Positions 1 to 58,504 of a stretch of 63,946 nt of DNA are shown piece by piece (position 1 is the first letter of the stretch; each line of letters begins with the position of its first letter). The notes beneath the pieces were generated by a model, which saw only the letters and a program-made list of their open reading frames with translations, did no database searches and was not told the origin of the DNA. The DNA is from an uncultured Bacteroidales bacterium. Its GTDB lineage: Bacteria; Bacteroidota; Bacteroidia; Bacteroidales; UBA3663. The stretch lies in NCBI GenBank assembly GCA_902779265.1, contig CACZAY010000006.1:1-63946 (forward strand), in the 5' to 3' direction. Position numbers and translations under genes: made by a program.

Positions 1-1
1 C

Positions 2-646
2 GCCGAAGTGCAGAAGATCACCGTCAAGGAGCATGGAGGTTCGACATTGGGCGGCCGTCCGGTGTGGTGGGATGCCGATGTGCAGCGCATCAACTACGAC
101 AAGCAGGGCCAATACCTGGGCGAATTCATGAGCGACGACAAGATTCTGGTCGTGCTCGACAACTACGAATATTACCTCACCTCGTTCGACGACACGAACC
201 ATTACGAGACCAACGTGCTGCGCATCGAGAAGTACGACCCGCACAAGGTCTGGACCATCGTCATGAAGGATTGGGAGACCGGTCTGCACAACCTCAAGCG
301 ATTCACGCTCGACGCCAAGCCGACGCGCCAGTCGATGTTGGCCGACACCAAGCGCTTCACCTTCGCCTACCTCACCGACACGCCCTATCCGCGTCTGCGC
401 TTCACCTTCGCCAAGCCCGACGACTTCCGCGCACCGCTGGAGATTGAGGCCGACGACTTCATCGCCGTCAAGAGCGCAGGCACCAAGGGCAAGAAGGTGG
501 CCAACTGGAAGGTGGCAGCCATCGAAGAACTTGAACCGACCAGGCAGCCGGAGGTTGTGTCCGATGGCGCATCGGCCGAAAACAACGAAAATCCCGATGA
601 AAATACTGAAGAAAACGCTCCTGCTGAGCCTGATTCTCTGTTCTGA
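2..646 (+). CDS. parC: DNA topoisomerase IV subunit A (ParC/GyrA family), C-terminal fragment; the 5' end lies outside the window
   Basis: The reading frame is open to the window edge. The C-terminal repeat region plus an acidic tail (..DDFIAVKSAGTKGKKVANWKVAAIEELEP..ENTEENAPAEPDSLF) resembles Bacteroidota ParC C-termini. Recognised from memory only. Confidence 0.55.
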   Translation, partial: AEVQKITVKEHGGSTLGGRPVWWDADVQRINYDKQGQYLGEFMSDDKILVVLDNYEYYLTSFDDTNHYETNVLRIEKYDPHKVWTIVMKDWETGLHNLKRFTLDAKPTRQSMLADTKRFTFAYLTDTPYPRLRFTFAKPDDFRAPLEIEADDFIAVKSAGTKGKKVANWKVAAIEELEPTRQPEVVSDGASAENNENPDENTEENAPAEPDSLF

Positions 647-1568
647 GTTCAGCCCCGCGATGCTGCCGGCGCAAGACAAGACATCGGCCAATGAGACATT
701 TGAAGAAGAAGTTCTCGCTGGCCATGTCGTTCCTGTTGAAGAACTTCTCGCTGGCCGTGTCAGTGGTGCTAAATCTGTTTATTCGGTCGATGAACCACAC
801 CGTCCCGTCACCTCGTCGCTCAGCCTCGGCATCGGCCGCGGAAAGATGCGCGACACGTATCTGACGCCGCTGCTCTATCAGGGCACTGCGCTCGACCTGC
901 ACTTCGACCGCTCGCGTGTGATGCGCGGCCTCAAGTGGAGCAACCTGCAGATGGCCGACCTCTCGTTCACCGACGGCGACGACACCGCATCGGGCCTGAC
1001 TTCGGCCTATGCCTTGCGTCTGCGCTACAGCTTCGCCATGCACAAGTTCTGGCGTTTCCCAACGAGCCTGTCCAACAAAAGCCTTGAGGTCGGCCCCTAT
1101 TTCGGCATCGACTTCGGCGGCAACTACAACCTGCGCATCGCCAATGGCAACAATCCGGCGACGCTGCGTCTGGCTGAGGGTTTCGGTCTGTCGGCCGCCG
1201 CTACGTGGGTTTGCTGGCCGTTCGGCTATCCCTGCCCGGTCAACTTCACGGTGCAGATGCCGCTCATCGGCACTGCTTTCGTGCCCGAATACGGCGCATC
1301 GTACTACGAGACGTTCTACCTCGAGACCGCGCCCAACGAGACGACCTTCACATCGCTCCACAACCGCCAGGACCTCACCCTGCGCCTCACGACCGACGTG
1401 CCGTTCGCCGTCATCCCGTGGCTGCACAACGGTTCGTCGCTGCGTCTCGGCCTCGGCTATCACATTGAGACAATGGACATTAACGACATCGTCACGCGCT
1501 ATTCAACGTTCCAGCTGGTCGTCGGCTGGTCGTGGCAGTATCTACCATATAAATATCATCGGCCATGA
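597..1568 (+). CDS. hypothetical secreted / outer-membrane-type protein
   Basis: An internal ATG at 597 gives the signal peptide MKILKKTLLLSLILCSEFSPAMLPAQ. The tracked 444 start is only an extension overlapping parC. The stop overlaps the next start (ATGA at 1565-1568). Confidence 0.6.
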   Translation: MKILKKTLLLSLILCSEFSPAMLPAQDKTSANETFEEEVLAGHVVPVEELLAGRVSGAKSVYSVDEPHRPVTSSLSLGIGRGKMRDTYLTPLLYQGTALDLHFDRSRVMRGLKWSNLQMADLSFTDGDDTASGLTSAYALRLRYSFAMHKFWRFPTSLSNKSLEVGPYFGIDFGGNYNLRIANGNNPATLRLAEGFGLSAAATWVCWPFGYPCPVNFTVQMPLIGTAFVPEYGASYYETFYLETAPNETTFTSLHNRQDLTLRLTTDVPFAVIPWLHNGSSLRLGLGYHIETMDINDIVTRYSTFQLVVGWSWQYLPYKYHRP

Positions 1569-2668: not shown

Positions 2669-2677
2669 TTTCCTCCT

Positions 2678-3628: not shown

Positions 3629-3797
3629 AAATGCGACATTGGCCAATGAGAAACCAATAATTCACTACTTTTGCGTCTTTTTTTTCACTTTTTGGCCAAT
3701 TTCCTTGGTCAGCTCAATTTTATCCCTTATTTTTGCCATAGAAAAACATTCACTCGCAACGAGACGCACCATAATTAAAAATCAAATACCAGAAGTC

Positions 3798-5970: not shown

Positions 5971-8202
5971 ATGAAGAAGTTTTTTGCGTTACTAATCATT
6001 TTCCTGACGACGACCTGTGGAGGTGAGGTATCGGCCAATGTAATTTCCGGTACCATCACCGACCGCCGCGGCGGGACGATTCCATTCGTCTCGGTGGCGG
6101 AAAAGGGCACGACCAACGGCACCATCTCGGATGCCGACGGACGCTTCAACATCGCCGTGCGCCGACTGCCCGTCACATTGTCATTCAACTGCGTCGGTTT
6201 CAACACAGTTGAAAGGACATTGGCCAACGAAGAGGACGGAATCACCGTCCAGATGGCCGAAGACGCCGAACAGCTTGACGAGGTGCAGGTCGTGGCCCGA
6301 GGCCGCAGTCGCGCCGACAACGTCATCATCGGCGTGGAGAACATACAGATGGCAGAGATGGCCAAGGTCCCCGCACTGATGGGCGAACGCGACGTCATCA
6401 AGTCCATCCAGCTGCTGCCCGGCATCAAGAGTGAGGGAGACGGCTCGTGCGGATTCCAGGTGCGTGGCGGCACGGCAGTACAGAACCTCGTACTCCTCGA
6501 CAACGCCACCATCTACAACGCCGGCCACCTGATGGGCGTCTTTTCGACCTTCAACGACGACGCCCTGACCAACGCCTCGCTCTACAAGGGCGCGATTCCC
6601 GCGCAGTTCGGCGATGCAGCCTCATCGGTCTTTGACATCAAGACACGCAGCGGCGACATGCAGGAGTATTACGGCAACGTGTCAATCGGCCTGCTCTCGT
6701 CAAAGTTTGCCATCGACGGCCCGATCGTGAAGGACAAGGCATCGTTCTTCCTGGCCGCCCGGCGCACCTACTTCGAGATTTTCCTGAAGCCGACCAAGAA
6801 GTACCGCGACAAGGTGATGAACTTCTATGACATCAACACGAAGGTCACCCTGCGTCCCTCGCAACGCGGCATCATGAACGTCATGTTCTTCCGCGGACGT
6901 GACAACATGGACATGGGCAACCACATCGCCGAGATGCACTGGGGCAACACTGCCGCTACGGCCGATTATCTGCATAGCATTGGCCAATGCCTCACGCTCA
7001 AGACCTCGCTCATCTACAGCCAGTACGACTTCATCGAGTCGATGGACGTGCTGAAGGTCAAGGAGAGCTTCGACAGCTACCTGCGCCACCACACCGTGCG
7101 CGAGGATGTGACAATAACGCCATCGGCCAACCAGAAAATCGCCATCGGCCTGCAATATGACCACATCAACCTCAAGTCGGGCGAGATGAAGATGAGCAAC
7201 GGACTGGTGGAACGCGAGATGCGGCGCGGTGACGAACTGTCGTTCTGGGTGGCCGATGAATGGTCTCCTGCCGATGGTGACGTGGAGCTTTCGGCCGGCG
7301 TGCGCGGCGTGATTTTCAAGGCATTGGACAATGACCGCAGAAAACAGTTTACAAGTGTCGAACCGCGCTTCAGCCTCAAATGGCGGCTGAACGACGACCA
7401 GAGCCTCAAGGCGGGCTACTGCCGCTCGTCACAGCACGTGCAGACCATCCTGGACAACGGGCTTTCATCGCCCATCGGACGCGCAGTCATGGCCGGCAAG
7501 GGCATCAGCCCGATGCAGTCGGACCAGGTGAGCCTGGGCTACGTGGCCGAGACATCGGACAAGAAATACGAATTCTCGGCCGAGACGTACTACAAGAAGA
7601 TTGCCAATGTCTATGACTACAAGGACGGCAAGCACCTGGGTGCGGACATCGCTTTGGAGACGCTCATCCTGAACGGCCGGGGACGCTCATACGGCGTGGA
7701 GATGCTGGCCAAGCGCAATATGGGCCGGCTGACGGGCTGGGTGTCGTACACGCTGTCGTGGGTCGAAAACAAGGTGAAGGGCATCAACGGGGGACGCTGG
7801 TACACGGCGCCGAATGACCGCCGCCACGACATCTCGATTGTCGCCATGTATGACCTGGGGAACGACTGGGATCTGTCGGCCACATGGGTCTTCACCTCGG
7901 GACAGGCACTGACCGCCCCGAGCGCGAAATATGAACTCGACGAATGGACGCACTATTATTATGCCGAACGTAACGGCTACCGTGCCCCTGCCTACCACCG
8001 CATGGACATCGGCCTCAATAACACCAAGGAGCGCACCCACTACACGCGCATCTGGTCGTTTGGCATCTATAACCTTTATAACCACTATAATCCATATATA
8101 ATTACCTTCGAGAATGATGACGAAAAGGTGACCGGAACTCGTACAGAGCAGGTTTCCCTTTTCGGCATCATCCCCTCGGCTTCGCTGACGGTGAAGTTCT
8201 GA
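5971..8202 (+). CDS. TonB-dependent receptor with N-terminal carboxypeptidase-regulatory-like domain
   Basis: MKKFFALLIIFL.. signal peptide; ISGTITDRRGGTIPFVSVAEKGTTNGTISDADGRFNI (CarbopepD_reg); plug region; beta-barrel ending ..SASLTVKF. Confidence 0.85.
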   Translation: MKKFFALLIIFLTTTCGGEVSANVISGTITDRRGGTIPFVSVAEKGTTNGTISDADGRFNIAVRRLPVTLSFNCVGFNTVERTLANEEDGITVQMAEDAEQLDEVQVVARGRSRADNVIIGVENIQMAEMAKVPALMGERDVIKSIQLLPGIKSEGDGSCGFQVRGGTAVQNLVLLDNATIYNAGHLMGVFSTFNDDALTNASLYKGAIPAQFGDAASSVFDIKTRSGDMQEYYGNVSIGLLSSKFAIDGPIVKDKASFFLAARRTYFEIFLKPTKKYRDKVMNFYDINTKVTLRPSQRGIMNVMFFRGRDNMDMGNHIAEMHWGNTAATADYLHSIGQCLTLKTSLIYSQYDFIESMDVLKVKESFDSYLRHHTVREDVTITPSANQKIAIGLQYDHINLKSGEMKMSNGLVEREMRRGDELSFWVADEWSPADGDVELSAGVRGVIFKALDNDRRKQFTSVEPRFSLKWRLNDDQSLKAGYCRSSQHVQTILDNGLSSPIGRAVMAGKGISPMQSDQVSLGYVAETSDKKYEFSAETYYKKIANVYDYKDGKHLGADIALETLILNGRGRSYGVEMLAKRNMGRLTGWVSYTLSWVENKVKGINGGRWYTAPNDRRHDISIVAMYDLGNDWDLSATWVFTSGQALTAPSAKYELDEWTHYYYAERNGYRAPAYHRMDIGLNNTKERTHYTRIWSFGIYNLYNHYNPYIITFENDDEKVTGTRTEQVSLFGIIPSASLTVKF

Positions 8203-8219: not shown

Positions 8220-9032
8220 ATGAATGACGCTATGAAGAATTTCCTGTATTTCAGCATATTGGCATGGGCCACCTCCCTCATCTCCTGCACGAAGGAGATT
8301 GAACTGGACTATCACGACATCGAGCCGGTGCCCGTCATCGAAGGCCTGCTTTCGGCCGACCGCACGGAGGTGCGCATCACCCGCACGCGCAACATGGACG
8401 ACTCGGTCAAATCGGCCGGCATCGAGGTCGATCGGGTGGAGATTATTTCGGCCAATGGACTTGCCACAACCCTCAACTACCAGAGCGACGGATTCTACCG
8501 TCCGGCATCGGCCATCACCCTCAACGACGGGGAGACCTACACGCTGCGAGTCACGATGGACGGTGTGACCTATACGGGCGAATCGACGCTCCAACCGGCC
8601 ATCCAGATTACCGAGCCCGAGTTTCTGTGGGCCAACCTGATGGACTGGATGCAGGTCATGGAATTTGAGACCATCAATGTGGCCGATGACGCCGAGGTGT
8701 ACGGCTGGATACGCATCTACCGCAACCGCGAACTGTATTTCGCCGATGTGGGGCGCATCAAGGGCAACTCGCCGATTGACATCGGCCTCTATTATGACAG
8801 CGACATGGAGCTGGACGAAGAGATGATCCTCTACAACGGCGACACGCTCGCGCTGGAGGTGCGCACCATAGACCTCGATGTCTATAACTATCTGGCCGAA
8901 TACAACTCGACAAAGATGAACCCGGAACAGTTCTTTACGCCTTCGGTCGAGGGGAAGGTCTGTCTGGGCTACTTTGCGGCCTACAGCAGCGTCTCGCACG
9001 AAATCATCTACCGGAAGACGCCGCACGAGTGA
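8220..9032 (+). CDS. DUF4249-family lipoprotein (usual partner of this TonB-dependent receptor class)
   Basis: Lipobox ..TSLISC. Position directly after the receptor gene. Sequence pattern ..PVPVIEGLLSAD..VRITRTR.. fits the family. Confidence 0.7.
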   Translation: MNDAMKNFLYFSILAWATSLISCTKEIELDYHDIEPVPVIEGLLSADRTEVRITRTRNMDDSVKSAGIEVDRVEIISANGLATTLNYQSDGFYRPASAITLNDGETYTLRVTMDGVTYTGESTLQPAIQITEPEFLWANLMDWMQVMEFETINVADDAEVYGWIRIYRNRELYFADVGRIKGNSPIDIGLYYDSDMELDEEMILYNGDTLALEVRTIDLDVYNYLAEYNSTKMNPEQFFTPSVEGKVCLGYFAAYSSVSHEIIYRKTPHE

Positions 9033-9085
9033 TGGACATTGGCCAATGCCCATCGGACAAAAAACAACCAAAAACACGGAAGACT

Positions 9086-9670: not shown

Positions 9671-10191
9671 GGGAATCCATCATCATCTACGGCAGCCGGT
9701 ACGGCACTGCGCGCCGATATGCCGAAAGGTTGGCCGAAATGACGGGCATCAGGTGCATTGGCCATAAAGACCTGAAAAAGGCCGATGACTACGGGCGCAT
9801 CATCTACGTGGGTGCGCTGTATGCCGGCAGCGTATTGGGATTAAAGGCATTGGCCAATGAACTTTCCGACCAGGAGCTCATTATCGTCACCGTCGGTCTG
9901 GTTGATCCGCAGGATGAGGCCAATGTCCGATACATCCGCCAGAACATCAGGTCGCAGATTCCGGCGCGGCTGTACGACGAGCGGAGGATTTTCCACCTGC
10001 GCGGTGCCATCGACTACGGCACGATGGGATTGAAACACCGGCTCATGATGGCGTTCATGCACAGCCGGTTGGCCAAGATGCCGGAAGACAAGCTCAACGC
10101 CGAGGCGAGAGTCATTCTGGAGACCTACGGGAAGAGCGTGGACCTGACGGACTTTGAGGGTCTGGACAAGATAAAAGAGTTGATTATATAA
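9667..10191 (+). CDS. flavodoxin-domain protein
   Basis: MRESIIIYGSRYGTARRYAERLA.. is a flavodoxin-like N-terminus. ATGA start/stop overlap with the upstream gene. Confidence 0.7.
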   Translation: MRESIIIYGSRYGTARRYAERLAEMTGIRCIGHKDLKKADDYGRIIYVGALYAGSVLGLKALANELSDQELIIVTVGLVDPQDEANVRYIRQNIRSQIPARLYDERRIFHLRGAIDYGTMGLKHRLMMAFMHSRLAKMPEDKLNAEARVILETYGKSVDLTDFEGLDKIKELII

Positions 10192-15310: not shown

Positions 15311-16732
15311 ATGGCAACATTTCCGAAACAAACCTACGTCGAGCGCCGTGAGCGCCTGGCCAAGACACTGGGCAGCGGCCTGCTGCTCTTCCTGGGCAAC
15401 AACGTCGCCTCGATGAACTACCGCGACAACAACTATCCGTTCCGTCAGGACAGCACGTTCCTCTACCTCTTCGGTCTGGACTACGAGGGTCTGGCCGCCG
15501 TCATCGACATCGACAATGCGCGCACCATCGTCTTCGGCGACGAACTGACCATCGACGACATCGTCTGGACCGGCCCGCAGCCCACATTGGCCGAAAAGGC
15601 AGCCAGCATCGGCGTGAGCGAAACAAGGCCATTGGCCGAACTGGAGAAGTATGTGGCCAATGCCATTGGCCAACACCAGCCCATCCACTTCATCCCGCCC
15701 TACCGCGCCGACACGCTGCTGTGGATTCAGGACCTGCTGGGCGTCAAGGTGGGCGGACTGGCCGGAGACGCCTTCGTGCGGCCTATGGAGGTCGCTGTGC
15801 CCTCGCTCCAGCTGGGCTATGCATTGGCCGACATGCGCAACCACAAGAGCGACGAGGAGGTGGCCGAGATTGCACGCGCCATCGACGTCACCGTCGCGAT
15901 GCACGAGACGGCCATGCGCATCGTGCGCCCCGGAATGCACGAACGCGACATCAACGCGGCCGTGATGCAGGTGGCATTGGCCAATGGCTATTTCTACTCC
16001 TTCCCGACCATCGCCACAAGCCACGGCGAGACACTCCACAACCACGGCTATGTCCACACGTTGCAGGACGGCGACATGCTCCTGCTCGATGCCGGCGCCG
16101 AGAGCCTGGGCCACTACGCCGGCGACTGCACATCGACGATGCCCGTTGGCCAAAACTATACAGCCCGCCAGCGCGAGGTCTATGACATCCTCTACGGGAC
16201 CTACGACGCCATCACGCGCATGATCCGCCCCGGCGTCACCTACACCGAGTGCCATGTCCAGGCCTGGGCCCACATTGCCGAGGGTCTGAAGCAGCTCGGC
16301 CTCATGCAGGGCGACCCGATGGAGGCGGCCAATGCAGGTGCCGTCGCGCTCTTCATGCCCCACGGACTGGGTCACATGATGGGACTCGACGTCCATGACA
16401 TGGAGAACTACGGCGAGGTCTATGTCGGCTATCCGCGCGGCGTGCAGAAGGACACCCGCTTCGGCTTCGCAGCCCTGCGCCTGGGCCGCGCCCTCGAACC
16501 CGGCTTCGTCTTCACCGTCGAGCCCGGCATCTACTTCATCCCCGAGCTCATCGACCAGTGGCGCGCCGCCGGCAAATTCCGCGAGTTCATCAACTACGAT
16601 CGCCTGGAGGCCTACCGCGACTTCGGCGGCATCCGCAACGAGGAGGACTGGCTCATCACGGCCAACGGTGCACGCCGCGTGGGCCGCAAGAAACCGGGCA
16701 GCGTGGAGGAAATCCTGGCCATGAAGGGATAG
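15311..16732 (+). CDS. aminopeptidase P family protein (M24B Xaa-Pro aminopeptidase)
   Basis: ..DINAAVMQVALANGY..LLLDAGAE..FMPHGLGHMMGLDVHD..FTVEPGIYF.. shows the M24 metal-ligand pattern. Confidence 0.85.
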   Translation: MATFPKQTYVERRERLAKTLGSGLLLFLGNNVASMNYRDNNYPFRQDSTFLYLFGLDYEGLAAVIDIDNARTIVFGDELTIDDIVWTGPQPTLAEKAASIGVSETRPLAELEKYVANAIGQHQPIHFIPPYRADTLLWIQDLLGVKVGGLAGDAFVRPMEVAVPSLQLGYALADMRNHKSDEEVAEIARAIDVTVAMHETAMRIVRPGMHERDINAAVMQVALANGYFYSFPTIATSHGETLHNHGYVHTLQDGDMLLLDAGAESLGHYAGDCTSTMPVGQNYTARQREVYDILYGTYDAITRMIRPGVTYTECHVQAWAHIAEGLKQLGLMQGDPMEAANAGAVALFMPHGLGHMMGLDVHDMENYGEVYVGYPRGVQKDTRFGFAALRLGRALEPGFVFTVEPGIYFIPELIDQWRAAGKFREFINYDRLEAYRDFGGIRNEEDWLITANGARRVGRKKPGSVEEILAMKG

Positions 16733-16741
16733 ACATTGGCC

Positions 16742-16801
16742 AAAATCTCCCTCATTGAGGGACAAAATCACCAAAAAATCTCCCTCATTGAGGGATTTTT
16801 T
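16742..16801 (+). terminator. two direct copies of AAAATCTCCCTCATTGAGGGA (hairpin TCCCTCA/TGAGGGA); the second is followed by a T-run
   Basis: Copies at 16742-16762 and 16775-16795, then TTTTTT. They begin 10 nt after the aminopeptidase stop. Confidence 0.7.
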
Positions 16802-17071: not shown

Positions 17072-18373
17072 ATGAAACAAAACAAAGAAATAAGAGCAAT
17101 AGACAAAAGACAACTTGAACAGATTTTTTCCGACCAACAGGAGGAGCTACAAGACAAACGTTCAAAATACTTTTGTACACGCAAGGAAACAAATCTGATA
17201 GACTTGAGCAGCCCCCAGGCCCAGGTAGTCATTGGTGTCAGGCGTAGTGGAAAATCAACGATGTGCTTTCAAGCGCTTGAAAAAGCGGGAGTGACCTATG
17301 CTTATGCCAACTTTGATGATGAACACCTGATTGGCATGAGTTCGGACCAGCTGAATGACGTTCTGGAAGTTCTGTATAAAATATACGGCAATTTCTCCTA
17401 TCTATTTCTCGATGAAATTCAAGACATAGAGGGATGGCATCTGTTCGTAAACAGGTTATTAAGGAAAAATATCCACATCATTATAACAGGGTCCAATGCA
17501 AATCTTCTCAGTTCGGAACTTGCAACCTACCTGACAGGAAGAAACAAAGAAATCAATTTATATCCGTTCTCTTTTTCCGAGTATTGTGAATTGAAAAAAG
17601 TTGATCAAGTCAGCATTTCGACCAAAGCTGAGGCTTTTCGAAGAGCAGTATTCGACGATTACTTGAAGGGTGGCGGTTTTCCAGAAAAATTCGCCATGGC
17701 AGACAGTTCTTCATACGTTTCGGGGTTAGTCAAGAACATTCTTGTCCGAGATATCGAACAACGGCATGGAATAACGTGGACTGATGCCTTTGAACGTATG
17801 GCAAACCATCTGCTGAACATCTCTCCGGCAATTGTCAACATCCCCGACTTGGCCGAATTGTTTGGATTCAAGTCGAATGCGACAATACGTAACTACATCA
17901 AATATCTGAAGGATTCATTTGTGCTTATCGAAGTACAGAAATTCTCACCCAAGAGCCGCCAACGTGTCACGCAAGAAAAAGTATATGCAGTGGATGTTGC
18001 CATGATGGACGAACGAGAAAATGCATTCGCCGGTGAAAACCTCGGCTGGAGATTGGAGACTATCGTACTGATTGAATTGAAAAGGCGCTGCAAGTTGAGC
18101 GGACTTGACGTTTACTATCTGGCGGACAGATCTTACGAATGTGATTTTGTCCTGTGCAAAGGAAATGTCATCCAACAGGCCATACAGGTTGCATACGACA
18201 TCTCATCGGACAAAACCAGAAAGAGAGAAATAAACGGATTGCTTGCCGCCGCAAAAAAATCAGGCTGTAAGGACCTGCTTCTTTTGACCGACCATCATTT
18301 CGAAGACCTTAAAATCGGAGATCTCGACATCAGGATTAGACCTGTATATAACTGGTGCATCGGCATAGAATAA
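17072..18373 (+). CDS. AAA-family ATPase with C-terminal DUF4143 (AAA_14 + DUF4143 architecture)
   Basis: Walker A VVIGVRRSGKST; Walker B YLFLDEIQDIEGW; C-terminal ..YECDFVLCKG.. is a PD-(D/E)xK-like signature. Low G+C compared with the neighbours. Confidence 0.85.
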   Translation: MKQNKEIRAIDKRQLEQIFSDQQEELQDKRSKYFCTRKETNLIDLSSPQAQVVIGVRRSGKSTMCFQALEKAGVTYAYANFDDEHLIGMSSDQLNDVLEVLYKIYGNFSYLFLDEIQDIEGWHLFVNRLLRKNIHIIITGSNANLLSSELATYLTGRNKEINLYPFSFSEYCELKKVDQVSISTKAEAFRRAVFDDYLKGGGFPEKFAMADSSSYVSGLVKNILVRDIEQRHGITWTDAFERMANHLLNISPAIVNIPDLAELFGFKSNATIRNYIKYLKDSFVLIEVQKFSPKSRQRVTQEKVYAVDVAMMDERENAFAGENLGWRLETIVLIELKRRCKLSGLDVYYLADRSYECDFVLCKGNVIQQAIQVAYDISSDKTRKREINGLLAAAKKSGCKDLLLLTDHHFEDLKIGDLDIRIRPVYNWCIGIE

Positions 18374-22105: not shown

Positions 22106-23497
22106 TCATTTCTCGAACAGATTGGTTTCCAGCTCCTCCAGCGACTTGCCTTTCGTCTCCGGCAGGCGCAGGTAGAAGAACGTGAAGCCCAATGCGCAGA
22201 TGACGGCATAGACCCAGAACGTGCCACTGCTGCCCAACGTAGCGTTGAGCGTCGGGAACGAATAGGTCAGGGTCGTGCAGCCCGTCCACAGCGCGAAGGT
22301 GCAGGTCGCCATCGCCACGCCGCGCACACGGTTCGGGAAAATCTCCGAGAGCAGCACCCACGTCACCGGCCCGAGCGTCATGGCATAGCACGCAATGGCG
22401 GCCACCACCAGAACGACCATAAAGAAGCCCGTCACGCCGGCATAGTAGCACGCACCGAGCGTCAAGTAGATGATGCCCAATCCCCCGGCACCGAAGAGCA
22501 TCAGCGAACGGCGGCCCCAACGATCGACCACATAGAGCGCCACGACCGTGAAAATGACATTGGCCACACCCGTAATCACGATATTGAACAGCACGTCGCC
22601 CACGCTATAGCCGGCCGCGGCGAAAATCTCCTGCGCATAGTTGAAAATCACGTTCGTGCCGCACCACTGCTGGAAGACCGCCACGATGATGCCCAACGTC
22701 AGCACGGCCGCAAACCTCCGGCTGAAGAGCGCGCGCAGGCCGCCCTTGGTCTCTGTGTCATTGGCCAATGCCGTTGCGCGGATATTCGAAAGCTCAGCCT
22801 TGGCATACTCCTCACCGCCCACGCGGGTGAGCGTCTTCAGGGCCGATGTCTCCCTGCCGTTCAGTGCCTGCCAGCGCGGACTCTCGGGGATGAAGAAGGC
22901 CAGAATCAAAAAAAGCGCAGCGGGAACGGCCTCGGCCCAAAACATCCAGCGCCAACCCCTTTGTCCATTCCACGAATCCAGGATGTCACTGTTCGTGAAT
23001 GTTGCCGGAACCTCATCGGCCAACAGCCAGTTCACCACCTGTGCGCCTAATATACCTATCACAATCGTCATCTGATTGAGCGAAACCAACCGGCCGCGCA
23101 TGTCACTGGGCGAAATCTCGGCGATATACATGGGCGACAGGGCCGATGCCACGCCGATGCCGATACCGCCCACGAAACGCGCCACGTTGAACAGCGTAAA
23201 GTCGTTGAAACAGCCCGTAGCCACGGCCGACACCGTGAAGAGCACCGCCGCCGTAATCAGGAGCGGCTTACGTCCGTAGCGGTCGGCCAATGCACCGGCC
23301 ACCATCGCACCAATCAGACAGCCCACAAGAGCCGTGGACATCGCCACACCCTGCATCGCAGGCGACGTCTCGATGCCGAAAAAGAGCTCGTAGAACGGCT
23401 TGGCACCACCGATGACCACCCAGTCGTAGCCGAACAGCAGCCCACCCATGGCCGAAACCATGCAGATGAAGTATGTAAACTTGTGAATGTGTTCCAT
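22106..23497 (-). CDS. sugar porter family MFS transporter (xylose/arabinose:H+ symporter-like)
   Basis: ..GGLLFGYDWVVIGGA.., ..ADRYGRKP.., ..PESPRW.., ..VDRWGRR.. are sugar-porter signatures. The ATG at 23497 is preferred over the TTG at 23503. Confidence 0.85.
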   Translation of the reverse strand: MEHIHKFTYFICMVSAMGGLLFGYDWVVIGGAKPFYELFFGIETSPAMQGVAMSTALVGCLIGAMVAGALADRYGRKPLLITAAVLFTVSAVATGCFNDFTLFNVARFVGGIGIGVASALSPMYIAEISPSDMRGRLVSLNQMTIVIGILGAQVVNWLLADEVPATFTNSDILDSWNGQRGWRWMFWAEAVPAALFLILAFFIPESPRWQALNGRETSALKTLTRVGGEEYAKAELSNIRATALANDTETKGGLRALFSRRFAAVLTLGIIVAVFQQWCGTNVIFNYAQEIFAAAGYSVGDVLFNIVITGVANVIFTVVALYVVDRWGRRSLMLFGAGGLGIIYLTLGACYYAGVTGFFMVVLVVAAIACYAMTLGPVTWVLLSEIFPNRVRGVAMATCTFALWTGCTTLTYSFPTLNATLGSSGTFWVYAVICALGFTFFYLRLPETKGKSLEELETNLFEK

Positions 23498-26757: not shown

Positions 26758-27102
26758 ATGAGAAAAATCATCACATACGGCGGATATTTTGAGGCATTTA
26801 TGGAGACTCTCTCTGTAAGTGAACAACGGAAGGTCGATTATGTCGTGTCGCTACTTGCCACACAAAATCGCCTGCCTACCAAATTCATCAAACACATAAA
26901 AGATGAGCTGTTTGAATTGAGAATAATGTGGGACAGCAACATCTACCGCGTGTTTTTCATTTTTGACGAAGGAAACATTGTTGTTCTGTTCAGCGGATTC
27001 CAGAAAAAGACGCAGAAGACACCCAAAACGGAAATTGAAAAAGCGATAAAGATAAAGGAGGCATATTATGCAGACAAACAATCATCAGATAAAGGACTAT
27101 AG
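26758..27102 (+). CDS. type II toxin, RelE/ParE superfamily (HigB / phage Gp49-like)
   Basis: ..KHIKDELFELRIMWDSNIYRVFFIFDEGNIVVLFSGFQKKTQKTP.. is the Gp49/HigB-like core. The toxin-first gene order fits a HigBA arrangement. Confidence 0.8.
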   Translation: MRKIITYGGYFEAFMETLSVSEQRKVDYVVSLLATQNRLPTKFIKHIKDELFELRIMWDSNIYRVFFIFDEGNIVVLFSGFQKKTQKTPKTEIEKAIKIKEAYYADKQSSDKGL

Positions 27103-27373
27103 TACCGAACTCGAACGGAAATATGGAGCTGTCGGCTCAAAAGAGCGTGAGCAGTTTGACGAAGAAGCCTGGAACTTCTACACCGGACAATTGTTACTTG
27201 AGGCCAGAAAGGAGTCGAAGGTGACACAAGAGGAATTGGCCCATCGAATCAACAGCAGCAAGTCATATATTTCCCGCATCGAGCATGGGCAGATTACCCC
27301 CAGCGTCGGGGTCTTCTACCGCATCATCAACGCATTGGGTATGCGCGTGGACATCGTTCACCCCATCGTGTGA
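27068..27373 (+). CDS. XRE-family HTH antitoxin (HigA-like)
   Basis: ..LLEARKESKVTQEELAHRINSSKSYISRIEHGQITPSVGVFYRIINALG.. is an XRE HTH. It overlaps the toxin gene by 35 nt. Confidence 0.8.
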   Translation: MQTNNHQIKDYSTELERKYGAVGSKEREQFDEEAWNFYTGQLLLEARKESKVTQEELAHRINSSKSYISRIEHGQITPSVGVFYRIINALGMRVDIVHPIV

Positions 27374-28868: not shown

Positions 28869-29198
28869 GAGAAAAGAAATAATATGGCCAAATAATTTTA
28901 ACAAAAAATCACCAAAAGCCCGTTTTTTTTGGAATAAAGTTCAATTTTATGCGCTTTTTAATCAAAATGTAAGTATTTTCGTTAAAAAGTGGCAACATTC
29001 TTTTTCGTTGATAACTCCCCGGCGCCCATTTTCCGCGTTTTTTCCATTTTTTTTGGCCAATGGGAACGCCGACGACACGGAAAAATCCATTGGCCAACAA
29101 AATCGATTTCCATTGATTTCAATTCATGGAGGAAAAAAATCGCACACTCCGCGAGACAACTCCATCGGCCATAATTTGGAAAATTCGTGGAATGTCCC

Positions 29199-29206
29199 TA
29201 TCTTTG
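29199..29206 (+). promoter_or_regulatory. -7 promoter box (TAtcTTTG) for polA
   Basis: tatctttg lies 25 nt upstream of the ATG at 29231. Confidence 0.5.
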
Positions 29207-29230
29207 TGCCGCAATAAACGCAACTTCCCC

Positions 29231-34167: not shown

Positions 34168-34347
34168 GGGAATATCGATTTTTGGCGGCAAAATTACTGC
34201 ATTCTGCACAAAACTCCAAACGCGGCGCAAGAATTGTGGAAAATAAATTGCAAGATTGGCCGAAAATCGCTATTTTTGCGCCCGAACTTTTCACCGGGGC
34301 GGGCTGTTTCATTGGCCAATGTCCCCAAAATAACCCATAAACACAAC

Positions 34348-37008: not shown

Positions 37009-37034
37009 AGGATTGTGTCATTGGCCAATGCCAC

Positions 37035-38399: not shown

Positions 38400-38469
38400 T
38401 CTGCTTATATAGTATTATGTGATTGATTTCACTGGATAGACGAATATCATTGGCCAATGCCCCAGCCAA

Positions 38470-49541: not shown

Positions 49542-49568
49542 CGCCGGAATTGAAGACAAAACAACATT

Positions 49569-50792
49569 ATGGCATTCGTAAACACAAACTTCACAAAAGT
49601 CAGCGAGTCGTACCTCTTCGTCGAGGTCGCCCGCCGCATCAAGGCATATCAGGAGGCTCACCCCGAGGCCAAAATCATCCGCATGGGCATCGGCGACGTC
49701 ACACGCCCCATCGTTCCAGCCGTCATCGAGGCACTCCACAAGGCAGTCGATGAAATGGGCACGGCCGACGGCTTCCGTGGCTACGGGCCAGAACAGGGCT
49801 ACGCCTTCCTGCGTGAGGCCATCTGCAACTACGACTTCAAGCAGCGCGGCATCGACATCCAGCCCGATGAAATCTTCGTGAGCGACGGCGCAAAGTCCGA
49901 CTGCGGCAACATCGGCGACATCCTTGGCCAACAGAACGTCATCGCCGTCACCGATCCCGTCTATCCCGTCTATGTCGATACGAACGTGATGGGCGGCCGC
50001 GCAGGCGACTTCGACGGCATCCGCTACAGCCGGATCTGCTATATGCCATGCACGCAGGAGAACGGTTTCGTGCCAACCCTGCCCTCGCAGCACGTCGATG
50101 TCATCTACCTCTGTTTCCCGAACAATCCGACAGGCACCACGTTGACCAAATCGCAGCTCAAAGTGTGGGTCGATTACGCACTACGCGAAAAAAGCATCAT
50201 TCTGTTCGATGCGGCCTACGAAGCCTTCATCACCGAAGACGACGTGCCGCACAGCATCTACGAGATTGAGGGTGCACGCCAATGCGCCATCGAGTTCCGA
50301 AGCTTCTCCAAGACGGCCGGATTCACGGGTCTGCGCTGCGGCTTCACCGTCGTTCCCAAGGAGCTTGTGGCCTACACCGAAGAGGGCAAAGCTGTCGCGC
50401 TCAACAGGCTCTGGAACCGCCGACAATCGACCAAGTTCAACGGCACGCCCTACATCGTACAGCGCGCAGCCGAGGCCGTCTATAGTCCCGAAGGCCGTGC
50501 TCAGATTATGGCCAACATCGCCTACTACCGCGAGAATGCCCGGCTGATGAAGCAGACCTTCGAGAGCATCGGCATCCCGGCATTCGGCGGCGTGAACAGC
50601 CCCTACGTCTGGATCAGGACTCCGCTCGACAGCTGGCAGTTCTTCGACCGACTGCTCGACGAATGTCACGTAGTGGGCACGCCAGGCGTCGGTTTCGGCC
50701 CATCCGGCCAAGGATATTTCCGTCTGACGGCGTTCGCCACGCACGAGGCCACACGCGAGGCCATGGAACGTATCAAGAAGTGGAAGCTTTGA
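49569..50792 (+). CDS. dapL: LL-diaminopimelate aminotransferase
   Basis: [48 protein letters not shown].. and ..[13 protein letters not shown].. (PLP Lys) are characteristic of DapL. Confidence 0.9.
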
Positions 50793-50879
50793 GTCATTGG
50801 CCAATGATATTATCCCCAGACACCCGCAGCGATTGTTTTCGTTGCGGGTGTAATATTTCTTTCACGTGGGCCATTGGCC

Positions 50880-53633
50880 TCAATAATAATAAATCTTTCC
50901 ATCTTCACCCACACCGCAGATGGAGACCTTCAGGTGGGCTGGACGCGCGCCGTTGTAGAACTGGATGTTTAGATTTCCGTCCTTGTCCGGATGGACATTC
51001 GGATTCCAATAGAGCGTGCGCCGATAATCGCTCGAATCGGGCAGTGCCGCGCCGGAATAGTCGCGATGGTAGAATTGTTCAGGATAGGCGAAGCCGTCAA
51101 TCAAGATGCGGCGGTCGCGGCGCATGGCCCGCTTCCCCTCGTTCGGAATCGGAACGACATCAAACCATACGTCGGGAACACCACGATTTTCTTCTTTGCC
51201 GACACCATTACGCATGTCATAGTCCGTAAAGACACGTACCTGTAGGATATGACGGGGATCAAGACGCTTCTTAAGAACTTGAGGAGACATTGGAGTCCCA
51301 ATACTACCTAATGTTGGTTCCGAGTACGTTTTTAATATTGCATGACCTTCAACCGATACCTTTAGATTGAATGATTGACGGGGATCATTCATGTTACCAA
51401 ACAATTCGCGCGCACTTTCATTCCAGAACATTATACCATTGAAGCAGCTATAATGCAACCCTTGGTCAATAGCATTATTCAACAACATATTGAAGTCATA
51501 GACAAATGCAGGTTTGCTGTAATCAAATGAATGCAAAGCGCGATGCACATTCTTCTTGATTGTAACATTTTTCAGAATATGGTCTGCATCATAGATTTCA
51601 TTTCGCGAAATATCTTCTTTCTCAATTTTCGAAGAATGAGTTTGTGCCCAAACATATGGTTTGCAGAATTTTGGGTAAAAAAAATCACGACGAACGTAAT
51701 AACTGGGAGAAACATAAGGATTGAGTTTTTCATAATCGATTAGGCTTGCAATACATTTTTTTATAGAATCTTTTTTTTCATAAGCGGTCATCATGAGAAT
51801 AGCCTGATCGTAGAAAGGAGGCATTTGAAAAATGAAATGGCCGTTACTGTCCACTTCGACCGCAATTCCTGCGATGTCACGACCTTTGTTCAACTCAGCC
51901 TCAACGATTATAGGGTGTTTTAAACCACTACTGTTTCGATTATATTGATCTTGTTGTGTATAAGTTTCCTGTCGTCTTTCTTCAACTTCTTCAATTTTTT
52001 TTTCAACTTCTTTTTGTAGCTTGTTTTCGAATCTTTCATTTAAATCTTCAAGCTCTTTCAACCCTTCTGCCTCATGCACATTTGCAAATTCGTCGTAAAG
52101 TACAATTTTGTTTTCTGGAGACAGTGTAAAAACGGCATTTCCCGTGTTATTCTTATCCACAATGTAATCCATCAGATCGAAACGCTCATACTCATCTTCT
52201 TTTAATTTGTAGATTTGACCTTCTACTGCAAATGATATCTCCGGCTGGAATCTCAGTTCCTCTACCGGCACATATTTCCGCCAGCCCTGAATCATCATCA
52301 GCTGGTCCAGTTTTTTTTGATGTTCCGCATCGTCGCCCTCAAAATAGCGCGCCGGATGAGCGACAAAACCACGCAGGTCGCCCGCCAGAAGCAGGTCGGT
52401 CAGGATGTTGCCATCGTCGTAGGTCGGTTCGTCACCGCGTCGGTCGCACACTGCAATACTCGCCGTTTTCAGTTGGCCGATGCTTGGCTGCAAGTTCAGT
52501 TTTTCAAACGGCTTTACGGCCAATGAATCAAACAAATTCAACTCGATTTTCTGTCCGATGTCACCGCGGTTCACGAATATCTGCCTTGTGGCCAATGGCC
52601 TTGCCTCCGTATCATAGGCCACAATCTCGTTCACGCCCGTCGGAAAATCTTTTGCGTCAATGGTTTGCGCATTTCGATTGAATGCAATCAACTTACCACG
52701 GCAGGTGACTGAAACGGCTGCAACGGCAACGCCATTGGCCACAATCCTGGCCTTCTGCCCGATCGGGTCGTAGGCAATGACCACGCCCGCTCCCTGGACT
52801 TCGGGCATTCTGGCCGTATATTTCTGCTCCAAATAGGTAAATTCCGCCTCCATCCGTTCGCCCTTTTGCGGCTTGATGGTAAGGACGCCACGCCCGTCAT
52901 CGTCGGTCTCAAGTTTTGTCCCATTGGCCAAAGAACCGATGATTTTCAATGGTTTTCCCTGCGCGTCAAGCACTTCGAATGCGACCCTGTTTTCCACATC
53001 AGCGAGTAGGGTTCCGCTCTCGGGATAGACCTTCACGTCGAGCCCCTCCTCCACACCCGCCAGGCGACGTTTCGGACGGTCAATGATACGCTTGTCGGCA
53101 TAGTTCCCAGTCTGCTCGGGCTTTTCGTAAATCGGCAGCACGCGGCTGTAAAGTCCCTCATAGTCACGGAAATAATCATTGGCCAACTCCTGATTGAAGA
53201 ACCAGCGGTCGTCAAAATCGCTGTGCGGCCGCTCCGTCACGTTGAAATTCAGCTGCCAGCGGGTGTAGGCGCGCAGTTCGTAGAAGCCAGAATACATCGT
53301 GTCTGGCAGGGCGAATTGGCCGAAACTCTGCGTATTATGATCCACGATGATTCGTTGACGTTCAACGAGATAGCCATCGGGCGAAAGCAGTTCGACATAC
53401 ATGATTTTGCTCATGTGGGATGGCCGATGGTCATCGGCCCGAAGCAAATAGGTCTTGAACCAGATCGTGTCGCCCACGAAATAGCTGTTGTTATCGGTAT
53501 GTACGTAGATTTTCTCCTGAACCTGCTCGCTGCTTCTCAGCTGATTTTCAAGTGAATCAATGGCATTGGCCAATGCCGTTTGAATCCCGAAGAACGCCAG
53601 CAGCGGCAACATGTTTTTCAAGTGATTTTTCAT
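50880..53633 (-). CDS. large secreted protein with N-terminal MG2 / alpha-2-macroglobulin-like fold; function unknown
   Basis: MKNHLKNMLPLLAFFGIQTALA signal peptide. ..KIYVHTDNNSYFVGDTIWFKTYLL..YVELLSPDGYLVERQ.. is MG2-like. The central third is compositionally foreign. Confidence 0.65.
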   Translation of the reverse strand: MKNHLKNMLPLLAFFGIQTALANAIDSLENQLRSSEQVQEKIYVHTDNNSYFVGDTIWFKTYLLRADDHRPSHMSKIMYVELLSPDGYLVERQRIIVDHNTQSFGQFALPDTMYSGFYELRAYTRWQLNFNVTERPHSDFDDRWFFNQELANDYFRDYEGLYSRVLPIYEKPEQTGNYADKRIIDRPKRRLAGVEEGLDVKVYPESGTLLADVENRVAFEVLDAQGKPLKIIGSLANGTKLETDDDGRGVLTIKPQKGERMEAEFTYLEQKYTARMPEVQGAGVVIAYDPIGQKARIVANGVAVAAVSVTCRGKLIAFNRNAQTIDAKDFPTGVNEIVAYDTEARPLATRQIFVNRGDIGQKIELNLFDSLAVKPFEKLNLQPSIGQLKTASIAVCDRRGDEPTYDDGNILTDLLLAGDLRGFVAHPARYFEGDDAEHQKKLDQLMMIQGWRKYVPVEELRFQPEISFAVEGQIYKLKEDEYERFDLMDYIVDKNNTGNAVFTLSPENKIVLYDEFANVHEAEGLKELEDLNERFENKLQKEVEKKIEEVEERRQETYTQQDQYNRNSSGLKHPIIVEAELNKGRDIAGIAVEVDSNGHFIFQMPPFYDQAILMMTAYEKKDSIKKCIASLIDYEKLNPYVSPSYYVRRDFFYPKFCKPYVWAQTHSSKIEKEDISRNEIYDADHILKNVTIKKNVHRALHSFDYSKPAFVYDFNMLLNNAIDQGLHYSCFNGIMFWNESARELFGNMNDPRQSFNLKVSVEGHAILKTYSEPTLGSIGTPMSPQVLKKRLDPRHILQVRVFTDYDMRNGVGKEENRGVPDVWFDVVPIPNEGKRAMRRDRRILIDGFAYPEQFYHRDYSGAALPDSSDYRRTLYWNPNVHPDKDGNLNIQFYNGARPAHLKVSICGVGEDGKIYYY

Positions 53634-55363: not shown

Positions 55364-55371
55364 CTTTTCTC

Positions 55372-56772: not shown

Positions 56773-57906
56773 TTACCCCTTCAGCGACTTCTCGAAGCGT
56801 TCGAGGAAGAGGTCGCATTCCTTTTGGCCGATGCAGAGCGGCGGCAGGATACGCAACACATTGGTGCCAGCGGCTCCGGTGAATACGTGCTGGTCGTAAA
56901 TCAGACGGTTGCGGACCTCCTTGTACGGATAGTCGAACTCGATGCCGATCATCAGGCCACGGCCACGCAGTTCCTTCAAGCCGGGGATGTTCATCGACTT
57001 GAGCTGCTGCATCAGATATTCGCCCTGCTTGGCGGCATTCTCGACCAACTTCTCGTCCTGAATCACATCGAGCACGGTGCAGGCCAATGCGCAGCCCAGA
57101 TGGTTACCTCCGAATGTCGTACCCAATTGGCCATAAACCGGAGTGAATTTGGGCGAAATCAGCACGCCGGCGAACGGATAACCGTTGGCGATGCCCTTGG
57201 CCACAGTGATGATGTCGGGACGGATGCCTGCATATTGGTGGGCGAAGAACTTGCCTGAACGGCCGTAGCCCGACTGAATCTCGTCGAGGATGAGCACTAC
57301 GTTGTTTTCTTCGGTCACCTTGCGTAGCTGCTGCATGAACTCGGTGGTCGGAATGTGGATTCCGCCGACGCCGCTGATGCCCTCGATGATGACGGCTGCG
57401 ACATCACCATTGGCAATGCTTGCCTTGATGCCCTCAATGTCGCCCAACGCGAAGAATTCGACCGGGAAAGTCGAGTTGATTGGTGCCTGGATCTTCGGAT
57501 TCTGGGTGACGTTAACCGCAGCCGAAGTACGTCCGTGGAAGGCGTGGGAGAATGCAATAACTTTCTTCTTGCCGGTATAGAACGATGCCAGTTTCAGCGC
57601 GTTCTCGTTGGCCTCAGCACCCGAATTGATGAGGAACAGCTGGTAGTCATCGTAGCCGCTCACCTTGCCAAGTTTTTCGGCCAATTTGACCTGCAATGGG
57701 TTCTTCACTGCATTCGAGTAGAAACACAGCTTCGATGCCTGCTCCTGCATGGTCTGCAAATAGCGTGGATGGCCATGGCCGATGGAAATCACGGCGTGTC
57801 CGCCATAGAAGTCGAGATACTCCTGACCTTTTTCGTCGTACACATAGCATCCTTTGCCATGGTCGATGGTCACATCAAAAAGTGGATATACGTCAAAAAG
57901 TTTCAT
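56773..57906 (-). CDS. argD: acetylornithine aminotransferase (class III aminotransferase)
   Basis: ..DFYGGHAVISIGHGHP.., ..LILDEIQSGYGRSGKFFA.. It lies adjacent to argC. Confidence 0.85.
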   Translation of the reverse strand: MKLFDVYPLFDVTIDHGKGCYVYDEKGQEYLDFYGGHAVISIGHGHPRYLQTMQEQASKLCFYSNAVKNPLQVKLAEKLGKVSGYDDYQLFLINSGAEANENALKLASFYTGKKKVIAFSHAFHGRTSAAVNVTQNPKIQAPINSTFPVEFFALGDIEGIKASIANGDVAAVIIEGISGVGGIHIPTTEFMQQLRKVTEENNVVLILDEIQSGYGRSGKFFAHQYAGIRPDIITVAKGIANGYPFAGVLISPKFTPVYGQLGTTFGGNHLGCALACTVLDVIQDEKLVENAAKQGEYLMQQLKSMNIPGLKELRGRGLMIGIEFDYPYKEVRNRLIYDQHVFTGAAGTNVLRILPPLCIGQKECDLFLERFEKSLKG

Positions 57907-58018
57907 TTTCTTTTAGGTTTTGAGGTTATGAGGTCGCGTCGCTTGTGAGGTTTTGAGGTAATATTCAAAGGCGATTCCAGAGGTATACAACCTAAAAACC
58001 TTACAACCTTATGACCTT
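57907..58018. repeat. second, inverted copy of the ~100-bp structured intergenic element seen at 39364-39467
   Basis: AGGTTTTGAGGTTATGAGGTCGCGTCGCTTGTGAGGTTTTGAGGT .. CAACCTAAAAACCTTACAACCTTATGACC. It fills the argC-argD spacer. Confidence 0.75.
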
Positions 58019-58504
58019 TTAAAATGCGATTGCCTTCAAGTTCAGGCCAGCCTTTTCGTCGAGACCGAACATCAGGTTCATGTTCTGGACGGCTTGTCCG
58101 ACGGCACCCTTCAGCAAGTTGTCAACCATCGAGGTGACGACAACCTTGCGGCCGAACACATCGACATGGACGAGTGCCTTGTTGGTGCCGACCACCTGCT
58201 TGAGGTCGATGGCTGCGTCACTGTAGTGAGTGAATGCGGCATCGGCATAGAAATCCTTGTAGAGCGTGGCAACTTCATCGGCCGACATTGCCTTCTTCAG
58301 ACGGATGACCTCGGTGCAGAAGATGCCACGTGCGAAGTCGCCGCGATACGGAATGAAATCGACCGTGATGCCGTCGGCCTCATAGCCCTCGTTGAGCGTA
58401 TCGACCACACGCGGAGCACCCGCTGGAGCCAGTTCGTTCAACGTCTGCGTGATTTCGTGCAGATGCTGGTGCGTGAAGAGGCGCGTGTCCGTCAGGCGGT
58501 TCAC
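58019..58504 (-). pseudogene. argC: N-acetyl-gamma-glutamyl-phosphate reductase, 3' half only (about 160 of about 320 codons)
   Basis: ..FTHQHLHEI..DFIPYRGDFARGIF..NLLKGAVGQAVQNMNLMFGL.. is the ArgC C-terminal domain. Homology stops at about 58504 and no N-terminal NAD-binding half follows. Confidence 0.8.

Follow-up and report, generated by a model that had tools for sequence, protein, structure and literature searches.

CATYGGCC(RA), a hyper-abundant and apparently undescribed asymmetric DNA word in one Bacteroidales lineage

The window analysed here, a contig of 63,946 nt from an uncultured Bacteroidales bacterium (CACZAY010000006.1, positions 1 to 63,946), is saturated over most of its length with a short asymmetric word, CATYGGCC (Y, C or T), which is often extended to CATYGGCCRA (R, A or G) and reads GGCCRATG on the opposite strand. 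In the native part of the window (positions 1..58480) the word occurs 234 times, 132 times in the T form and 102 times in the C form, corresponding to 4.0 copies per kb and 3.2% of the native DNA, and 127 of the 234 copies extend to CATYGGCCRA. This hyper-abundance is strong and real and, in this one Bacteroidales lineage, apparently undescribed: a literature search found no paper on this word or on any such word in Bacteroidota. Such behaviour is otherwise known only from DNA-uptake sequences (DUS) and from HIP1, a highly iterated palindrome of cyanobacteria, and the likeness to both that a preliminary description of this DNA had pointed out holds.

That description had started from a 12-bp palindrome, CATTGGCCAATG, all 11 copies of which are present at exactly the start positions it gave (listed below), whereas dinucleotide shuffles of the window lead to an expectation of 0.03. 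Its estimate of at least 55 copies of the 8-bp core, TTGGCCAA, was close to the 58 that we count (1.44 expected), the final copy lying at 56667. An unbiased count of all 8-mers in the whole window is headed by CATTGGCC/GGCCAATG (132 copies) and CATCGGCC/GGCCGATG (103 copies). With both strands counted, an order-3 Markov model predicts 7.5 copies of CATTGGCC and 0.04 copies of the 12-mer, against 132 and 22 observed. The expectation for CATTGGCC climbs with the order of the model: orders 3, 4 and 5 give 7.5, 35.6 and 93 copies, respectively. This approach to the observed count would speak for a trivial cause, be it base composition, the usage of codons or amino acids, the insertion of short repeats, or an artefact of assembly or sequencing. 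However, the order-5 expectation nears the observation because the 6-mers that feed the model are mostly copies of the motif; it is therefore no valid refutation, and a codon shuffle and related genomes were used instead.

In the codon shuffle, synonymous codons were permuted within each gene so that all proteins and the codon usage of every gene were preserved. Coding DNA contains 202 copies of CATYGGCC against 30.1±4.9 in the shuffles, 44 copies of TTGGCCAA against 4.6±1.9, and eight 12-mers against 0.11. The second null, 274 kb of GC-matched Bacteroidales relatives scaled to the window, predicts 1.9 copies of CATTGGCC (132 observed, 70-fold), 7.3 copies of CATCGGCC (102 observed) and 0.2 copies of CATTGGCCAA (61 observed, about 300-fold). 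The word is moreover present in four independent assemblies from different studies, and its copies align to orthologues without gaps, indicating substitution and not insertion. The codon shuffle, the GC-matched relatives, the gapless orthologue alignments and a scan of 80 further species (see below) refute a trivial cause, whose probability we regard as negligible, and confirm that the enrichment is real and driven neither by composition nor by codon usage. Dispersed elements resembling repetitive extragenic palindromes or miniature inverted-repeat transposable elements, and tandem repeats, were likewise rejected, as the copies align gaplessly to orthologues and their flanks are unrelated. The motif is thus native sequence read in frame within conserved genes and not an inserted tag, as had been proposed with the examples ALANE, SIGQC and ALANG, all three of which we recovered from the reading frames. 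The assumed G+C content of about 57% needs correcting to 55.5% for the native part.

The palindrome itself did not hold as the unit of enrichment, which is best written as the asymmetric word CATYGGCC(RA) with the optimum CATTGGCCAA. When both flanks of every GGCC were scored separately, CATT or CATC was found on 17.8% of the flanks, and CATY stood on both flanks at 17 sites where independence of the flanks predicts 20.8. The 12-mer palindromes are two opposite-strand words sharing one GGCC. On the 3' side, CATYGGCC is followed by a purine in 86% of the copies, then by A in 57%, then by an A-rich stretch; TG at this place is no commoner than the opposite-strand word implies, and ATTGGCCAAT reaches 0.72 of its maximal-order expectation. 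Sorting the sites by their flanks and comparing each class with the relatives gave the following counts:

Bare YGGCCR without T/A flanks: 77 observed, 79.6 expected (neither enriched nor depleted).
TYGGCCRA without a CA flank: 31 observed, 12.6 expected (2.5-fold).
TYGGCCRA with exactly one CA flank: 93 observed, 1.7 expected (55-fold).
TYGGCCRA with two CA flanks: 17 observed, 0.4 expected.
CATYGGCC followed by RA: 127 observed, 2.4 expected.
CATYGGCC not followed by RA: 107 observed, 9.2 expected.

Sites with one CA flank are also in excess within the window (93 against 70 by our own calculation of the expectation; chi-square about 15.6). Among the non-coding sites 22 of 25 are one-sided, with the T form prevailing about 4:1 and CATTGGCCAAAA as the typical sequence, so that the asymmetry does not stem from constraints on coding. 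One-sidedness in coding and non-coding DNA alike argues against the simple binding site for a dimeric protein that had been suggested, and an asymmetric 8- to 10-mer is what a monomer would be expected to read. Position 4 holds C or T in 234 copies and A or G in 16. One-mismatch variants are about twofold enriched overall, mostly at the outer positions: the enrichment concerns positions 1, 2, 4 and 8, whereas at positions 3, 5 and 6 such variants are missing or depleted. Tail-to-tail pairs of the form GGCCRATG-N(1-3)-CATYGGCC occur five times (1599, 15655, 31060, 44663 and 53422) against about 1.2 by our density estimate, and in intergenic DNA only two inverted pairs were seen. One of the tail-to-tail arrangements belongs to a larger group:

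15630..15671: cluster of three half-sites, CATTGGCC...GGCCAATGCCATTGGCC, an example of GGCCRATG-N(1-3)-CATYGGCC.

The make-up of the core bears on a methyltransferase-linked repair ratchet of the HIP type, in which a methyltransferase specific for YGGCCR or GGCC, acquired by this lineage, would mark the core and methyl-directed or mismatch-specific repair beside it would convert near-matches in one direction, to CATYGGCC(RA), leaving the word as a by-product without function. Both the degeneracy at position 4 (C/T 234, A/G 16) and the purine that follows GGCC in 86% of the copies match YGGCCR, and the one-mismatch variants at the outer positions 1, 2 and 8, with none at the inner positions 3, 5 and 6, repeat the outer-position pattern that Elhai reported for variants of HIP1 (PMC4390886). 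The "alternate HIPs" of the same study occur sporadically in single genomes, always together with a matching methyltransferase (PMC4390886), and such sporadic occurrence fits the restriction of the word to a single lineage. Most copies lie in coding DNA, as in HIP1. Set against this, CAT is the strongest part of the word and lies on one side only, 3 nt beyond the core, whereas growth on both sides would be expected if the ratchet worked on a palindrome, and there is no excess of double-sided sites. Bare YGGCCR stands at the level of the relatives (77 against 79.6), and no gene for a methyltransferase, Vsr or a nickase was found in the approximately 77 kb of the lineage examined. The known effects of very-short-patch repair are far weaker than an enrichment of 50- to 70-fold as found here. 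Because the Y...R degeneracy around GGCC matches YGGCCR, we nevertheless keep the ratchet as a serious, if rather doubtful, candidate.

The word shows no preference for either strand. Its copies divide 117:118 between the two orientations and are balanced in every 10-kb block, so that the strand independence raised in the preliminary description is borne out, and the cumulative GC skew of the window is nearly monotonic. Known polar signals show, in a given replichore, a strong bias towards one of the strands. The even split in a window of nearly monotonic skew, and a density more than ten times that of known Chi sites, consequently speak against a polar recombination or segregation signal that would, like Chi, the FtsK-orienting polar sequences (KOPS) or architecture-imparting sequences, guide RecBCD/AddAB or FtsK. 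Although the word is an asymmetric, over-represented and species-specific 8-mer, as such a signal would be, and although a partly Chi-like action has been suggested for HIP1 (bioRxiv 10.1101/2024.09.10.611283), we consider this explanation very improbable.

Only 13% of the copies are non-coding. Of those within genes, 74% share the frame nCA-TYG-GCC (equivalently GCC-RAT-G), and the choice of codons follows the word: Leu-Ala is encoded 83 times by TTG-GCC and 21 times by CTG-GCC with TTG being only 17% of the Leu codons, and Ala-Asn 57 times by GCC-AAT and 39 times by GCC-AAC with AAT being 29% of the Asn codons. The effect on proteins is best seen in the following gene:

29126..32146, plus strand: DNA polymerase I (PolA) gene with 15 half-sites.

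About half of the PolA sites are located in variable segments or linkers, and several displace residues that are conserved in 13 relatives, as at 29989 (L-A-N-A for L-D/E-N-A/V in the relatives), at 31069 (A-I-G-H for L-A-G-H) and at 32071 (M-A-N-A for M-A-G-A). These sites align gaplessly and therefore arose by substitution and not by insertion. A pressure at the level of DNA here overrides both codon choice and conserved residues.

Nearly all native genes carry 2-10 copies per kb, the exceptions being an AAA_14/DUF4143 gene, a toxin-antitoxin pair, the glutamate dehydrogenase gene (one copy) and an aminotransferase gene (49569-50792), and the spacing of the copies is slightly clustered, neither even nor periodic (coefficient of variation 1.16 against 0.99). 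High density over nearly all native genes together with strand symmetry would suit an abundant sequence-specific DNA-binding protein whose binding sites are selected for chromosome organisation or protection of self-DNA, and such a structural role has been put forward for HIP1 (PMC5861425). The slightly clustered spacing and the lack of significant site conservation between strains (see below) do not agree with such a role, and a new nucleoid protein needing about four sites per kb in a single species, at a cost to the proteins, would be unusual. We judge selected binding sites to be unlikely.

Copies accumulate directly behind genes. A copy starts 0-11 nt past the stop codon at 14 of 47 genes, against 3.3±1.8 for random positions, and independent flanks of the lineage show the same pattern: 5 of their 24 gene ends have such a stop-proximal copy, the commonest spacer being 4 nt. 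The class includes five of the 11 12-mers. At gene ends with a visible hairpin terminator, the word follows the stop codon and precedes the hairpin, and the stem does not contain it. The motif as a terminator stem was accordingly rejected: the predicted hairpins lack it, and terminator-like sites show no excess (17 against 19.2). The individual sites are the following, the 16-bp palindrome at the end having been correctly placed by the preliminary description:

3637..3648: 12-mer CATTGGCCAATG, starting 8 nt past the stop of the 2-hydroxyacid dehydrogenase gene (2678-3628).
6978..6989: 12-mer in the TonB-dependent receptor gene, read S-I-G-Q-C.
9037..9048: 12-mer starting 4 nt past the stop of the DUF4249 gene (8220-9032).
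9848..9859: 12-mer in the flavodoxin-like gene, read A-L-A-N-E.
15975..15986: 12-mer in the M24 aminopeptidase gene, read A-L-A-N-G.
16734..16745, plus strand: stop-proximal one-sided site CATTGGCCAAAA, 1 nt past the aminopeptidase stop and upstream of a terminator-like hairpin (16781-16795).
22759..22770: 12-mer in the minus-strand sugar transporter (MFS) gene.
34310..34321: 12-mer on the 5' edge of the GH2 gene, upstream of the start that other assemblies call.
37019..37030: 12-mer in a convergent spacer, 4 nt past the stop of the minus-strand AraC-type gene (37035-38399).
38448..38459: 12-mer 10 nt past the stop of the minus-strand gene 38470-39363.
50795..50806: 12-mer 2 nt past the stop of the aminotransferase gene (49569-50792).
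53562..53577: 16-bp palindrome GGCATTGGCCAATGCC including the eleventh 12-mer (start 53564), in the minus-strand gene 50880-53633.

The word is missing from DNA that is foreign or was recently acquired. The window itself provides the control, as its last part is foreign, and several loci within the native part are also poor in the motif:

1..58480: native chromosome segment saturated with CATYGGCC/GGCCRATG according to the word counts.
17072..18373, plus strand: AAA_14/DUF4143 accessory gene, low in GC (0.43) and motif-free, with no sites between 16734 and 18449.
26758..27373, plus strand: toxin-antitoxin pair (Gp49/HigB-like and helix-turn-helix), motif-free, GC 0.39-0.50.
49569..50792, plus strand: aminotransferase gene with host-like G+C at third codon positions (0.78) and 0 half-sites in 1.2 kb where about 5 are expected.
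58461..58480: 20-nt overlap AGATGCTGGTGCGTGAAGAG joining two unrelated contigs; other assemblies run on into a complete argC.
58481..63946: foreign tail with caspase-like and CHAT genes; one half-site in 5.4 kb (0.18 per kb), GGCC at 2.8 per kb.

The tail carries genes for a caspase C14 protein (59720-60634) and a CHAT protein (61062-63602), and window positions 58461-63946 are 100% identical to a separate 10-kb contig with trypsin-like, caspase-like and CHAT genes, which has one half-site in its 10 kb. In other assemblies the native sequence continues past 58480 with a complete argC and the arg operon. Since the two pieces share only 20 nt, the junction looks like a mis-join; what had been called the host part, reaching to 58504, is really the native part ending at 58480, and the remainder is an assembly mis-join and not a mobile element. 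The motif is kept in the true continuation (2.1 per kb) and in the left flank (3.2 per kb); the foreign tail serves as an internal negative control. Within the native part, the AAA_14/DUF4143 gene and the toxin-antitoxin pair are probably recent arrivals. The longest motif gap, 1.8 kb from 48997 to 50795, spans the aminotransferase gene and could reflect either a recent replacement or unusually strong constraint. In practice, the word offers a clean marker that can be used in binning and to detect DNA that is foreign or mis-assembled, as the mis-join flagged at 58480 illustrates.

The window carries ordinary housekeeping and glycan-use genes (PolA, SecDF, GH2, fucosidase, TonB-dependent receptor, arginine biosynthesis), and Rfam and tRNA scans of the window gave no matches. 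Two other assemblies of this species have about 50 nt that are missing or replaced in the window at 42996-43017, and 4 nt that it lacks at 44361; the latter gap splits a Big_5-domain gene that is intact elsewhere (638 aa). These changes are either strain differences or assembly errors.

The phylogenetic range of the word is narrow. The same sequence is found in three independent public metagenome assemblies at 99.4-99.98% identity. In PolA-anchored loci (about 20 kb each) of 80 other Bacteroidales species, including GC-matched ones, the enrichment is absent, also in the nearest of them, L003, with 76% PolA identity and equal G+C. Equal density in unrelated Bacteroidales, which the preliminary description had named as the mark of a trivial effect, was thus not observed; related and unrelated ones lack the word. 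Exact protein look-up provided further relatives:

L086: PolA 97% identical in protein and 93% in DNA; motif at 3.3 per kb.
L083: PolA 82%; a trace of the motif, with 13 CATYGGCC in 19.7 kb against about 3 expected (about fourfold, C form).
L331: PolA 79%; no motif.
L330: PolA 78%; no motif.

Presence of the word at 97% PolA identity or more, a trace at 82% and absence at 79% or less imply that it arose within a narrow lineage. The relatives contain no other dispersed enriched word, their top 8-mers being local tandem arrays.

Comparison with L086 over about 6 kb showed 23 copies in each strain, of which 19 are shared and four are private to each. Sites are conserved at 83% against 72% for arbitrary 8-mers, a difference without significance over the only 6 kb that are comparable (p=0.19), and the pattern suggests a steady state in which copies turn over, more than a conservation of single sites. 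Two more specific readings of this comparison were rejected: multi-nucleotide "writing" at the strain-private sites, as these sit in locally divergent stretches, and a C-to-T shift at position 4 between the strains, as the excess of the C form in L086 is regional and the window has 15 C and 8 T in the same 6 kb. Two further assemblies (L001 and L002, 99.4-99.8% identity) differ from the window too little to inform on the motif.

Searches beyond the relatives did not extend this range. A metagenome scan with GGCATTGGCCAATGCC returned at least 120 matches, and all those listed are isolated chance matches, none motif-rich and none a further contig of the lineage; a viral scan with CATTGGCCAATGCC gave mostly chance matches. 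Three related IMG/VR fragments (L116, L144 and L201) contain CATTGGCC six to nine times per 8-10 kb (about 1 per kb), always as the T form and never extended by RA. These phage fragments encode virion protein, endolysin and tail-fibre-assembly genes, and their nearest database relatives are freshwater (spring) phages. The fragments are unrelated to the present host and have no sequence similarity to the window, and we judge them a separate matter.

The relatives showed repeats and word biases of their own. Three sisters at 78-82% PolA identity (L083 at 13771-13815 and 16885-16940, L084 and L330) have intergenic tandem arrays of the 11-bp unit GAAGTGACAAR at several loci, and L007 (69% PolA identity) has a tandem array with a 42-bp period at 13929-14290, in which AATTGGAC alternates between the strands with 14 copies in 360 bp. 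The palindrome GTTCCACGTGGAAC recurs a few times near polA in L044, L045 (for example at 12799, 13815 and 13856), L047, L050 and L082, all loci of the Paludibacteraceae type, and is possibly a conserved regulator-binding site. GGCC reaches 8-12 per kb in the window lineage and others and is scarce (0.3-1 per kb) in many Bacteroidales relatives (L008, L012, L016-L018, L021, L024, L026, L029 and others), several of them at 48-52% G+C; this scarcity resembles a footprint that restriction systems targeting GGCC have left in some lineages.

Taken together, the pressure that maintains the word acts on DNA, is strong, specific to one lineage and symmetric with respect to the strands, favours an asymmetric unit and affects resident but not foreign DNA. 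We favour, tentatively, a recognition word specific to the species and spread by a drive linked to uptake or recombination, on the grounds that the unit is one-sided and symmetric between the strands, that foreign DNA is depleted of it, that the proteome bears a cost and that gene ends carry copies. CATYGGCC(RA) would be recognised on double-stranded DNA in either orientation, and uptake, protection or recombination would prefer fragments or alleles with the word. Copies arising by point mutation would then spread faster than they decay, as in the uptake sequences of Neisseriaceae and Pasteurellaceae, so that the word would accumulate by biased fixation tied to DNA exchange, while purifying selection on proteins would filter the surviving copies towards the frame nCA-TYG-GCC-RAn, variable segments and the stretch between stop codon and terminator. 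Our inference is twofold: biased uptake or recombination as the source of the pressure, and the existence of a dedicated receptor.

Several observations weigh against such a drive. Sequence-specific uptake is, to our knowledge, not known in Bacteroidota, and no competence gene or pilin-type receptor was found in the approximately 77 kb of the lineage examined. These 77 kb are, however, perhaps 3% of a typical genome of 2.5-3 Mb, and the absence of methyltransferase, Vsr and competence genes from them therefore carries little weight. The word is confined to one narrow lineage with no other "dialect" in its sisters, whereas DUS and the uptake signal sequences (USS) are family-wide; the few copies outside genes stand beside terminator hairpins and do not form them; and the symmetric Y...R around GGCC equals the specificity of YGGCCR methyltransferases and restriction enzymes. 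As sites are not significantly conserved above background, nothing in the strain comparison separates drive from repair bias. Drive by uptake and its main rival, the methyltransferase-linked ratchet, may also be compatible, as natural transformation was reportedly enhanced by methylated HIP1 (bioRxiv 10.1101/2024.09.10.611283). To mechanisms not thought of we leave about one quarter of the probability.

In its boldest form, the drive would make it the first "self" word to enhance uptake or recombination in bacteria other than Proteobacteria and cyanobacteria, of recent origin, in one uncultured gut/rumen Bacteroidales species and at the highest density yet (about 4 per kb, 3% of the genome), a claim that we put forward as a possibility with considerable reserve. 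If true, it would mean that DNA is often exchanged sequence-selectively in a group from which no such exchange is known, and would offer a young system whose responsible gene could be found by comparing motif-rich with motif-free sisters. Whatever the mechanism, the case shows a DNA-level force that overrides codons and conserved residues in an abundant group of gut/rumen bacteria. Genome-wide "written" words are rare and their origin is debated, with DUS and USS being put down to uptake drive and HIP1 still unsettled after 30 years. The sister at 82% PolA identity is nearly motif-free, which makes the present case a young one in which a comparison of gene gains could identify the responsible protein.

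Among the known systems, Chi and the FtsK-orienting sequences are also species-specific, over-represented and asymmetric 8-mers, but they are strand-skewed and far rarer, while the word shows no skew. The recognition sites of CfrI/EaeI (YGGCCR), MscI/BalI (TGGCCA) and HaeIII (GGCC) share the centre of the word, whose central six positions are exactly YGGCCR; unlike these specificities, the enrichment depends on the flanking CAT and leaves bare YGGCCR at the level of the relatives. Target sites of restriction-modification systems are usually avoided or neutral in genomes and not 50-fold enriched. HIP1 (GCGATCGC) and the alternate HIPs resemble the word in being hyper-abundant, GC-rich and mostly coding in several frames, in having a core of the methyltransferase type and one-mismatch variants at outer positions, and, as to the alternates, in occurring sporadically in single genomes. 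However, HIPs are true palindromes, in contrast to the one-sided unit described here, and no gene for an associated methyltransferase was found in the window or the flanks examined. HIP1 sites are also conserved between genomes above background and periodically spaced (PMC5861425), whereas here conservation is 83% against 72% (p=0.19) and the spacing is not even.

The closest parallels are the DUS of Neisseriaceae (about 10-12 nt) and the USS of Pasteurellaceae (a 9-nt core with an AT-rich flank), the two families to which a 2025 survey of uptake-enhancing sequences is confined (bioRxiv 10.1101/2025.10.24.684340). Like the present word they are short and asymmetric, equally frequent on both strands at about 1 per kb or more, placed in genes in preferred frames despite amino-acid changes, scarce in foreign DNA, present in extra copies just downstream of genes, accompanied by moderately enriched one-mismatch variants and weaker in a flank on one side (here RA and the A-rich stretch). 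USS are also said, by Findlay and Redfield in 2009, to favour variable protein segments. DUS and USS reach up to about 2% of the chromosome and have about half of their copies in terminators (bioRxiv 10.1101/2025.10.24.684340). Their terminator copies are often inverted pairs that make up the stem, and in naturally competent organisms they bias uptake through a specific receptor, ComP or a ComN-type minor pilin. The word differs from them in belonging to another phylum and to a single narrow lineage without sister dialects instead of a whole family, in standing between stop codon and terminator instead of in terminator stems, in having as its core a restriction-site-like palindrome with Y/R degeneracy and, at about 4 per kb, in exceeding any density reported for DUS or USS.

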